From an uncultured Enterobacterales bacterium (GTDB lineage Bacteria > Myxococcota_A > UBA796 > CAJQPC01), in assembly GCA_964610645.1 (NCBI GenBank), contig CAZSZE010000005.1, positions 33,282 to 97,281 of the forward strand: DNA of 64,000 bases, in the 5' to 3' direction. Position numbers and translations under genes: made by a program. Position 1 is the first letter of the stretch. Each line of letters opens with the position of its first letter. The notes under the pieces were generated by a model, which saw nothing but the letters and a program-made list of their open reading frames with translations, was not told the origin of the DNA and searched no databases. This document shows, piece after piece, positions 44,646 to 46,574 of the stretch.

Positions 44646-46574
44646 CTACTCCGCCAGGTCCGCCTCAATGATCTCCTGCATCTGGTCCGGTTCGTAGACG
44701 TTGTTCACGTAGGCCACGCGCCCGCTGGAGTCGACGATCCAGTCCTGGGGAAAGAGGGCGCTTGACACCTCCCGGTCCAGGAGTTGGTACTGGTCGGCAG
44801 CGACCTTGTTCGGGTCCCCGAGAATCGGGAACGTGATTCCCAGTTGGTCGCGGAAGTTCTCCAGCTCGGCGGTGCGATCCTCCGGGGCGATGCCCACGAC
44901 CACCACTCCGTCGTCCTTGTAGCGCTGCCAGATGCTGTGCTCGATGTCCGAGACCTCGGACGGGCAGACGGGTCACCACGTGGCGAAATAGACCAGCACC
45001 ACCGGGTGGCCCAGGTTGTCCGACAGGCGCCAGCTGTTTCCGTCCAGGTCGGCGAGCACAAAGTCCGGGGCCTCCTGGCCGATGGCGACGTTGGAGGTGA
45101 CGCCGGCTCGCTCCGTGAGCAGCACCTCTCGGATGGGATCGTCTGGATCGTTTGTGGCGAGGCACAAGGTCGCGTCGATGGCGTCTCCATCGTCTGCAAA
45201 GTCGATCCGGATGTCGGCTTCTTCACCGGGAGCAATGGTGAGTCGATCCACCCAGGCGGTGAACCTGGAGTCGTCCACGAATCCCCCGGTGATCACCAGC
45301 TCCTCGGAGCCCCGGTTGCGGAGGGTGGCATGGCGCGTGGCGGCCGCCTGGGCATAGTAGATCTCCCCTGGGCCGTGGTCGGCGGCAGGGGCGCTCACGG
45401 CAGCATCGACCGTGAAGCGCTCGAGCAGCTCCCAGTCGGCGACATAGGCGCTCGCGCCCACAGCCTTCACGTGCATGCCGAACTGGGGTGTCGGTTCCAT
45501 GCCAAGGGGAATGGGCGCGGTTGGGTCGGACAGCCCCAGGACGGCCACGTCTTCGTGGCCCACTCCCCACAGGAGGCCGGCATCAGCGCTCACGGACATG
45601 ATGCCGTTGCTGAAGGCAATCGTGCTTGTGGAGACCGGCGCGGAGGGGTCCGAGAGGTCAAAGGTCTGGATTCCGGCGGCGCCCACGGCCAGGTGCAGTG
45701 CACCGTCCCAGGCGGTGAGATCCTGGGCTCCCCCGGCCGTTTCGACAGGCGTGCCGATGACGGGCGCAGACCCGTCGCTGATGTCGATGGGCACCAAACC
45801 CAACTGCGCGTCGGCCACATAGGCAAAATCCCCAACGATTTCGATGTCCCAGGGGCTGCCCAGCCCCTCGATCGTCCTGGAAAGCACGGGTGCCACCGTG
45901 TTGTTGACCTGAAAGACGTGCAGCCCGCCAAGCTGGTTGAGCACGTAGAGAAACGGCGACTTCCAGGCCATTCCCGAAGCGCCTTCCGCGCCCGACTGGG
46001 AGAGACGTGTGTGAGGCGTGTTCGTGGTGTCCACGATTTCGATGCCGTGGTCCCGGTGGCTGACCGCCACGATGTGGCTCCCGAGAATCTCCACGTGGTA
46101 GTACCGGCCTTGTCCGGTGTCGGGGTAGTTTCCGATCACCGCCCCCCCGTCCTCGGCGACCTCAAAGGTCACAAGGCCCCCTTGGCCGACCGCGTAGGCC
46201 CGCCCCAGGTCGCTGTCTACATCCACATCGACATATTCGCGCAAAGGAGCGCTGAAGCCCGGGTTGGTCTCGGGAACGCGCCAGTCCATGGACAGGGGAT
46301 CAGCAGGCAGGTCACTCGGTGCATCGCAGTCGCCGGTCAGCTGGACGAGGTCCTCCACGTCGCTGTCGGCGTCGCTGTCGGCGTCGCTGTCAGCGTCCCC
46401 GTCGGCATCGGCATCAGCGTCCGCATCGCTGTCCGCGTCTGCATCCCCCCCGTTCTTGAAAGGTCGGCAGAGGCCGTTTGAATCCAACCCGAACCCCTCA
46501 GCGCAGGAATTGTCGCCACAGCCCACCCCAGCCGATGTGCCCAGGAGGACCACCAAGAATACCCGTCCAAGCAT
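44646..46574 (-). CDS. lipoprotein selenoprotein candidate: LVIVD-repeat beta-propeller, Ig-like domain and a TlpA/ResA-like thioredoxin domain with U-x-x-C (TGA 44973-44975 read as Sec)
   Basis: Track ORFs 44973..46736 and 44646..44906 are in the same frame and are separated only by a TGA. Joined, they read HPVVLVYFATW-[TGA]-PVCPSEV...GITFPILGDP. The start was trimmed to MLGRVFLVVLLGTSAGVGC. LVIVD-like strands are present (GIEIVDTT, GLHVFQVNN, GLVPIDISD, GIQTFDLSD). Confidence 0.75.
44946..44961 (-). promoter_or_regulatory. candidate bacterial SECIS hairpin
   Basis: The RNA reads UGA-CCCGUCUGCCC-GUCCGA-GGUC-UCGGAC. This is a 6-bp stem starting 11 nt after the UGA, with a GGUC apical loop. 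Confidence 0.55.

Follow-up and report, generated by a model that had tools for sequence, protein, structure and literature searches.

A conserved in-frame UGA, very probably read as selenocysteine, in the gene for a predicted multidomain thioredoxin-fold lipoprotein of an uncultured bacterium

We analyzed a 64,000-nucleotide (nt) stretch of contig CAZSZE010000005.1 (assembly GCA_964610645.1), here called the window, which derives from an uncultured bacterium. On its minus strand, positions 44646–46574 very probably form one gene rather than two open reading frames (ORFs), encoding a 642-residue selenoprotein in which an in-frame UGA is decoded as selenocysteine (Sec, U). The elements of this gene on which the argument turns are as follows.

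44646–46574, minus strand: complete predicted selenoprotein coding sequence, from the ATG at 46574–46572 to the TAG at 44646–44648, based on the read-through translation and the family alignment
46581–46586, minus strand: Shine-Dalgarno-like AAGAGG, a candidate read from the sequence 6 nt 5' of the ATG
44973–44975, minus strand: in-frame UGA, predicted to encode U534; TGA occurs at 83 positions in relatives' loci, and most representatives end here
44946–44961, minus strand: candidate core hairpin of a Sec insertion sequence (SECIS), with a 6-bp stem GUCCGA/UCGGAC and an apical loop GGUC at 44955–44952

The upstream ORF (44973–46736, minus strand; 587 amino acids, aa) terminates at the TGA at 44975–44973. 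The downstream ORF (44646–44906, minus strand; 86 aa) lies in the same frame and begins at a GTG internal to a thioredoxin-fold domain. Around the junction, the minus strand reads ...GTC TAT TTC GCC ACG TGG TGA CCC GTC TGC CCG TCC GAG GTC TCG GAC ATC.... Translation from 46574 to 44646 yields 643 codons, interrupted by one internal stop (...VVLVYFATW*PVCPSEVSDIEHSIW...) and closed by TAG, hence a read-through product of 642 aa that contains W533, U534, P535, V536 and C537. The ATG at 46574 matches the N-terminal Met of close homologues P0001 and P0002 (relatives are cited by our handles, P for proteins and L for loci). A first-pass annotation, made from the letters of the window, had proposed this read-through; its coordinates, its statement that the ORFs share a frame, its position for the hairpin and its product length were all correct on re-reading. 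It had also placed the TGA at the first Cys position of a W-C-x-x-C motif, and U534, within W-x-P-V-C, does align with the WCxxC of rare Cys forms of the family.

To define that family, we searched 5.8 billion proteins and obtained 33 close members. In 31 of these, gene callers ended the protein at one and the same codon, directly after ...[YF]F[AS]TW. The other two are P0030, which ends earlier and is presumably truncated by its contig, and P0006 (641 aa), which has WCPHC followed by 104 further residues. A scan with the family alignment across one genome per GTDB species returned 245 relatives, and 79 loci from ~63 assemblies (metagenome-assembled genomes, MAGs) were kept. The codon after the conserved Trp is TGA 83 times, TGT once (L073) and TGC once (L081); a pattern match with ATA at this site, in L080, was rejected as unrelated sequence. 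In nearly all 83 cases, ~105–110 in-frame codons encoding the remainder of the domain lie behind the TGA. Residues Pro+1, Cys+3 and Glu+6 after the UGA are each found in 80 of 80 sequences, and the Pro and Cys codons vary synonymously, pointing to selection at the protein level downstream of the UGA. The first-pass annotation had allowed that orthologues might terminate here ahead of an independent gene, or that resequencing might give TGC or TGT. Instead, in-frame coding for the domain continues across the loci, and the 83 independent TGAs exclude a sequencing error. This comparative evidence shows that the locus is one gene and that its UGA has been kept as a sense codon where the redox-active residue belongs.

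We also used phmmer with the N-terminal 533 residues as query, and hence independently of the motif, against 1.84 billion 50%-identity representatives, and classified the best 150. These include ~117 family representatives, of which 113 terminate exactly at W and 3 have WCxxC (P0006, WCPHC; P0172, WCPQC; P0169, WCPVC). In P0115 (651 aa), the full architecture is kept, with SPNDPRAP in place of W-U/C-x-x-C and a degenerate redox site. Another ~30 of the 150 are unrelated giant LVIVD proteins. These data suggest that ~96% of family members use Sec rather than Cys.

The mRNA can form the hairpin GUCCGA-GGUC-UCGGAC (44961–44946) beginning 11 nt past the UGA. This hairpin, reported in the first-pass annotation, is confirmed here and proves to be conserved with covariation. 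Its GGUC loop begins 17 nt past the UGA, and the hairpin belongs to the minimum-free-energy fold of a 66-nt stretch. A small apical loop containing G is a common feature of bacterial SECIS elements (PMC1088965), and the GGUC hairpin presents such a loop just 3' of the UGA. We tested pairing and covariation in an alignment of 78 distinct Sec-form sequences (A2), with 500 shuffles and with partner columns slid by 1–3 as controls. Standard pairs fill 97.2% of cells in the six stem pairs, versus 19–52% when the partner is slid. Two pairs show compensatory change: 18:33 (GC 68, CG 4, AU 2) and 21:30 (CG 64, GC 10, UA 1). None of the 500 shuffles matched the observed pairing, covariation score or count of double changes.

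The stem lies in the codons of a conserved P/A-S-E-V-S-D, and the signal resides in synonymous positions. Taken jointly, the Ser codons at +5/+8 are UCC/UCG 63 times, UCG/UCC 9 times, and UCU/UCA and UCU/UCG once each; no sequence has the same codon at both sites, and AGY is absent. All 80 sequences have GAG for Glu+6, whereas Glu+11 is GAG in 29 and GAA in 13. Val+7 is GUC in all 77 sequences. Asp+9 is replaced by Glu (GAG) in four sequences in which the preceding Ala is GCC (or Pro, CCC), and pair 18:33 is thereby kept. Judged from this pattern, a structured RNA element is under selection at SECIS distance from the UGA; across relatives, the TGA and the hairpin both occur far beyond chance. 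A longer lower helix seen in the single-sequence fold (A2 columns 12–16 with 50–54) was rejected at 62% pairing across the family; RNAalifold recovered three central pairs only, and a terminator scan found nothing convincing past the TGA.

The Cys forms are informative in this respect. L073 and L081 retain only three of the six pairs and have no GG loop. P0006 (L087, 6001–7926; TGC) carries a decayed hairpin at the same place, UCGGC-GGAGGUG-GCCGA, with four of the six family pairs and a GGUG loop, which suggests a fairly recent, secondary conversion from Sec to Cys. Loss or decay of the hairpin in forms with a Cys codon is the pattern predicted by SelB-dependent decoding. In sum, the comparative evidence is decisive, and the UGA is almost certainly a selenocysteine codon.

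Several family members depart from the common form. Two paralogues from one MAG (assembly CAJWOS01) differ in type, L069 being a Sec form and L073 a Cys form. Divergent extra Sec paralogues have SSW-U-PVC in L033 (minus strand, 5654; hairpin loop GGUU) and EFW-U-SGC in L062 (plus strand, 10127). L079 and L080, both from Neomarinimicrobiota MAGs, and L082 share the motif U-P-A-C and a variant hairpin (..CCGGAGUUUUCGG..), with a 215-codon tail behind the UGA in L079 and L080. In L028, the frame behind the UGA is open for 484 codons. P0154 (496 aa) terminates at ...VVVLVFFTPG and may mark Sec at a different place.

The predicted product is assembled from five segments.

46518–46574, minus strand: lipoprotein-type signal peptide MLGRVFLVVLLGTSAGVGC, with Cys19 as the putative lipidated residue (motif level)
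46359–46448, minus strand: low-complexity acidic linker of Asp, Ala and Ser, residues ~43–72 (from the translation; residues 1–70 of the P0006 model have a predicted local distance difference test score, pLDDT, <50)
45375–46292, minus strand: LVIVD-repeat beta-propeller, residues ~95–400 (Pfam LVIVD, P0006 model and Foldseek)
45120–45362, minus strand: beta-sandwich, immunoglobulin (Ig)-like, residues ~405–485, with invariant Cys471 (sub-threshold Pfam match; model strands 405–489)
44649–45083, minus strand: ResA/TlpA-like thioredoxin-fold domain, residues 498–642, with the motif W-U534-P-V-C537 (Pfam, PDB and Foldseek)

The fusion of lipoprotein signal, Asp/Ala/Ser linker, LVIVD propeller and Ig-like sandwich, which had already been remarked on in the window protein, is the architecture common to the whole family. 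At the N-terminus (MLGRVFLVVLLGTSAGVG-C19), a 31-sequence family alignment (A1) shows Cys19 conserved to at least 90%. A crude lipobox test (a hydrophobic stretch plus a lipobox-like xxxC) picked out at least 96 of 127 family N-termini, and many of the rest look like lipoboxes outside the test pattern or like mis-called starts. The GVGC of the window protein departs from the canonical L-[AS]-[GA]-C lipobox, and the assignment is a motif reading.

Domain scores were obtained from Pfam and NCBIfam with Cys substituted for U in the read-through product. Pfam LVIVD (PF08309) reaches 43.5 bits, above its cut-off of 20.2, which, with the modelled fold, places the protein in the propeller family. The HYDIN/VesB-like Ig family PF22544 is sub-threshold in the window protein (19.2 versus 25.5) and is precomputed for relatives P0007, P0012, P0019 and P0023. 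AhpC-TSA (PF00578; residues 498–622, 93.2 bits versus 26, E 1.5e-26) and Redoxin (residues 499–637, E 2.3e-19) both span the TGA. The downstream piece had been said to complete a TlpA/ResA-type oxidoreductase, and indeed its 108 codons finish the fold.

As a stand-in for the window protein, we used an AlphaFold2 model of the full-length Cys orthologue P0006 (mean pLDDT 87, predicted TM-score 0.83). Residues 1–70 are disordered, followed by a ~28-strand propeller at 93–401 (pLDDT >90), a beta-sandwich at 405–489 and a thioredoxin fold at 506–640. In Foldseek, the propeller matches 7- and 8-bladed propellers, and the C-terminal domain matches Bacillus subtilis ResA (TM-score 0.89–0.90, root-mean-square deviation 1.9 A, 25% identity). 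The nearest stand-alone relatives of the domain are Cys-containing TlpA/CcmG-type proteins of 180–216 aa with 35–40% identity. Outside it, Cys83 (46326–46328, just before the propeller) and Cys471 (45162–45164, in the beta-sandwich) are invariant in A1 and could be joined in a structural disulfide or serve as a second redox pair.

A scheme can be proposed for the synthesis and action of this protein. During translation, UGA 44975–44973 would be decoded as selenocysteine, the 16-nt hairpin acting as a bacterial SECIS that recruits SelB with Sec-tRNA(Sec), as the comparative signature and known bacterial Sec decoding suggest. Judging from its motifs, the product would probably leave the cytoplasm and be held by Cys19 on a membrane that faces the periplasm or the cell surface. 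By analogy with ResA and TlpA, the U534 selenolate would attack a substrate disulfide or other oxidised sulfur centre, C537 would resolve the mixed selenenylsulfide, and a membrane electron shuttle of the CcdA/DsbD type would re-reduce the Se-S bond. The propeller and sandwich domains would most likely dock the substrate.

It is also conceivable, although we consider it unlikely, that the protein is a selenoprotein whose C-terminal domain is a peroxiredoxin-like peroxidase, or a site for handling chalcogens or metals, rather than a ResA/TlpA-type reductase. Sec is typical of peroxide-reducing enzymes. The best Pfam match is AhpC-TSA, the peroxiredoxins Bcp and PrxQ are matched weakly in NCBIfam, and some relatives are named 'peroxiredoxin' by JGI. 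But ResA is the best NCBIfam match, and the best PDB matches of the domain in sequence and structure are to ResA: in the sequence search, ResA entries are among the best at E 5.5e-16 (Bacillus ResA, 4nmu) to 1e-10, the top match being 2ls5, an unnamed thioredoxin-fold protein. The HMMER alignment pairs the Glu at U+6 with a Glu of ResA, which we take to be Glu80, a residue that tunes the ResA active site. In the field, the domain family is called 'Prx-like' (PMC9312934), yet the motif here (FATW-U-PVC) is W-U-x-x-C, as in ResA/TlpA, and not the PxxxT/SxxC/U of peroxiredoxins, nor is it the TxxU given for Sec-peroxiredoxins (PMC13188914). The motif and the ResA matches thus favor a disulfide reductase over a peroxiredoxin.

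A second possibility, to which we give the same small share of belief, is that the UGA serves as a selenium switch with two outputs, the full reductase when selenium is available and otherwise a 533-residue propeller-sandwich lipoprotein that has no working redox domain but a role of its own. Sec insertion competes with termination in bacteria. Moreover, the N-terminal 533 residues comprise complete, confidently modelled domains, and P0115 keeps the architecture without the redox motif. Yet the truncated product would end ~35 residues into the thioredoxin fold and would likely be unstable.

A number of results weigh against the view that U534 is the Sec residue of a ResA/TlpA-type enzyme. No selA, selB, selD or tRNA-Sec was found within the 64-kb window or 1.27 Mb of related loci. 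(The search employed ARAGORN on the window and 60 loci, Pfam and NCBIfam on ~50 window genes, and tblastn with E. coli SelA, SelB and SelD against the window and the 1.27 Mb.) For the hairpin, shuffles reach fold energies as good as that of the 66-nt stretch (z = 0.08, for this single sequence); Rfam gave no match at the gathering threshold, nor at E up to 10 on 44600–45200; and the hairpin has no bulged U of the fdhF type, its possible lower helix being the one 62% paired. To our knowledge, few bacterial SECIS types are covered by Rfam. For the protein, the ResA model NF002854 reaches 73.3 bits against a cut-off of 170, although it is still the best NCBIfam match; all-against-all clustering of ORFs within 6 kb at the 79 loci revealed no conserved neighbour or operon partner; and the function, localisation, substrate and electron donor are proposed by analogy. 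As to the decoding machinery, the sample per genome is small, so its absence carries little weight and neither supports nor refutes the Sec reading. The sole SelB match in tblastn, in L020 (606 aa, MNELRNIAIIAHVDHGKTTL...), was rejected, its sequence looking like a TypA/BipA-type GTPase.

That absence does count toward a third account, namely that the UGA is read through without selenocysteine, by a suppressor or Cys-inserting tRNA, by near-cognate Trp or through a lineage-specific change of code, and so does the fact that Cys is functional at this position in the rare Cys forms. We nonetheless regard this as very improbable. TGA is the commonest stop in the window and ends 20 of its 33 Pfam-supported genes, indicating that TGA is not reassigned in this genome. 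Also against it are an RNA-selected hairpin at the SECIS position with the fdhF loop, and the loss or decay of this hairpin where the codon is Cys. Least credible of all, and effectively refuted by the comparative data, are the readings in which the TGA is a real stop, a sequencing error or a pseudogene lesion separating a 533/587-aa propeller protein from an unrelated or dead 86-aa ORF: gene callers do split the locus thus in every public source, and TGA is a frequent stop, but a stop here would cut the thioredoxin fold in mid-active site, would have to recur at the same codon in 83 cases with conserved frame and invariant residues behind it, and would leave a downstream ORF that begins inside the domain.

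Selenocysteine at U534 is therefore the reading we retain, and the window was scanned for other candidates of the kind. Only at U534 does an in-frame TGA have convincing coding signal both before and behind it, in a protein-like context; the remaining candidates were rejected as gene junctions or non-coding frames. A scan for TGA followed by a GGU-loop hairpin likewise found no selenoprotein gene beyond 44646–46574 in the window. At 49125–50171 (minus strand), 2.5 kb from the selenoprotein gene, lies an ArsS-type radical SAM gene (TIGR04167, 'arsenosugar biosynthesis radical SAM (seleno)protein', 428 bits), a family that includes selenoproteins. Here it is a Cys form that ends ...GSSCGGALA before its TGA. 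The 64-kb window has a single tRNA gene, tRNA-Arg CCG at 18524–18599.

The selenoprotein gene is convergent with a gamma-glutamyltransferase gene (42928–44637, plus strand; TIGR00066, 423 bits). On the same strand, 80 nt upstream, is a NosD-like beta-helix gene (46654–47838, minus strand; TIGR04247 weak at E 3.5e-9, no Pfam match), which adjoins the selenoprotein gene only in the closest relatives (L001 and L083). Extensive synteny links the window to the 82%-identical locus L001/L004. Elsewhere, tandem copies occur on single contigs (L008, L026 and L033), with a divergent tandem copy in L062, and several assemblies hold 3–4 copies of the family.

Named relatives are mostly MAGs labelled 'Myxococcota' or 'Deltaproteobacteria' from marine and lake metagenomes. 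Bins without a Myxococcota label hold members as well, namely the Neomarinimicrobiota loci L079 and L080 and also L082. Many of the ENA MAG records that carry it are titled 'uncultured Enterobacterales bacterium', which is implausible given 65% G+C and Myxococcota-like genes; the title is probably placeholder taxonomy. In the window, a complex I (nuo) cluster (20365–29939, minus strand) has subunits B, C, D, H, I, J, L, M and N by Pfam, and the best named relatives of its NuoD are Myxococcota/Deltaproteobacteria MAGs (66–72% identity). Two divergent genes (32353–34905, minus strand; 34995–37334, plus strand) encode proteins of 850 and 779 aa, each with 6–7 MopE-type, putatively Cu-binding repeats (PF11617, E 1e-65 to 1e-74), and an ALK/LTK glycine-rich domain is present in one of the two as well. 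Near the Cys-form orthologue in L087, too, a MopE-repeat protein is encoded. Finally, a 699-aa ORF (56255–58354, plus strand) matches thioredoxin-disulfide reductase over residues 394–692 (TIGR01292, 384 bits); its N-terminal extension of ~390 residues has no family match, and its TTG start may be mis-called.

The practical importance of these findings is for annotation; their biological interest is moderate. At least 113 clusters at 50% identity are split in databases into a 'hypothetical' propeller protein ending ...FATW and an orphan fragment of ~85–110 aa. The active site is lost in both pieces, and 'peroxiredoxin' is the only name that the orphan fragments bear in any source. A family model would correct hundreds of gene calls, mostly in MAGs labelled Myxococcota or Deltaproteobacteria. 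For selenium biology, the family would place a Sec redox centre on an exported, lipid-anchored multidomain scaffold, with an unusually strong preference for Sec and several paralogues per genome, implying a substantial extracytoplasmic demand for selenium in these aquatic bacteria. The paired Ser codons (UCC/UCG, UCG/UCC and UCU/UCA) make a very clean case of RNA-structure covariation in synonymous sites. More tentatively, and with less than even confidence, we suggest that these propeller-sandwich-Sec-thioredoxin lipoproteins constitute a distinct, undescribed class of extracytoplasmic selenoenzymes, in which the propeller selects macromolecular or small-molecule substrates, paralogues have expanded and the need for selenium is near-obligate. 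If true, this may be the dominant selenoprotein family of an uncultured aquatic lineage, mostly labelled Myxococcota, and the coexistence of Sec and Cys paralogues in one assembly would provide a naturally occurring system in which to ask why Sec rather than Cys is kept.

How does this protein compare with known systems? Recent reviews class prokaryotic selenoproteins by domain and Sec motif, a rule stated in PMC9312934. Judged in this way, the Sec-bearing domain is a member of the 'Prx-like thiol:disulfide oxidoreductase, UxxC' family known since 2004-2005 (pfam00578, UxxC/UxxU; Kryukov & Gladyshev 2004; listed in PMC9312934 and PMC13188914), with which it shares the PF00578 domain, Sec as the N-terminal redox residue of U-x-x-C and a SECIS hairpin just downstream. 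Also shared is the excess of Sec over Cys forms, 22 to 4 for the Prx-like family in the Sargasso Sea survey (PMC1088965). Compared by description, the difference is one of context: in the window protein the domain makes up the last 145 of the 642 residues of a predicted lipoprotein with an LVIVD propeller and a beta-sandwich, whereas the reviews rely on domain and Sec motif alone to delimit the family and describe no domain fusions (PMC9312934, PMC13188914). The thiol-disulfide isomerase-like selenoprotein of the Sargasso Sea (cd02966, TlpA-like; PMC1088965, PMC13188914) is alike in its TlpA-like fold and UxxC motif. It is known from marine metagenomic data as four short sequences with widespread Cys homologues (PMC1088965), and these may or may not be fragments of the multidomain family.

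Among Cys proteins, B. subtilis ResA, Bradyrhizobium TlpA and CcmG (DsbE) share with the window protein the fold, the W-C/U-x-x-C motif, Glu at +6 and, probably, extracytoplasmic anchoring. They are single-domain proteins, held by a transmembrane helix or as simple lipoproteins, that act in the maturation of cytochrome c or CuA; the window protein has Sec, ~480 extra residues and lies in no ccm/res operon, with no ccm, res, ccdA or sco gene adjoining it in the window annotation. No NCBIfam model reaches its cut-off with the window protein (DsbE TIGR00385, 29.4 bits versus 123), and the curated selenoprotein models WAxxUGC_long, PrxU and deiodinase-related gave weak matches only. PDB entries 4hqs, 2yp6 and 4hqz ('thioredoxin family protein'), matched in sequence at E ~4e-11 to 5e-11, are presumably the Streptococcus pneumoniae surface lipoproteins Etrx1/Etrx2. 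If so, they are close to the predicted window protein in being lipoprotein-anchored, TlpA-like reductases outside the cytoplasm, but have Cys and no propeller. Etrx1/Etrx2 feed methionine sulfoxide reductase.

The hairpin, too, has a close counterpart. Like the SECIS of E. coli fdhF, it has a GGUC apical loop and an A-U closing pair, with the loop at 17 nt rather than the 18 nt of fdhF. The latter distance, given in the first-pass annotation, is right: TGA followed after 18 nt by GGTC is present in 5419 of 5426 E. coli genomes (by fdhF annotation). Unlike fdhF, the hairpin has a perfect 6-bp stem without a bulged U, its lower helix is not conserved and its stem sequences are unrelated. None of the papers searched links selenoproteins with LVIVD, and searches pairing them with TlpA or a beta-propeller yielded no description of this architecture. 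What appears new and undescribed is the conserved fusion of several domains in a predicted lipoprotein, along with how large the family is and how strongly it favors Sec (Sec:Cys ~113:3); the Sec chemistry and the active site are of a known kind.

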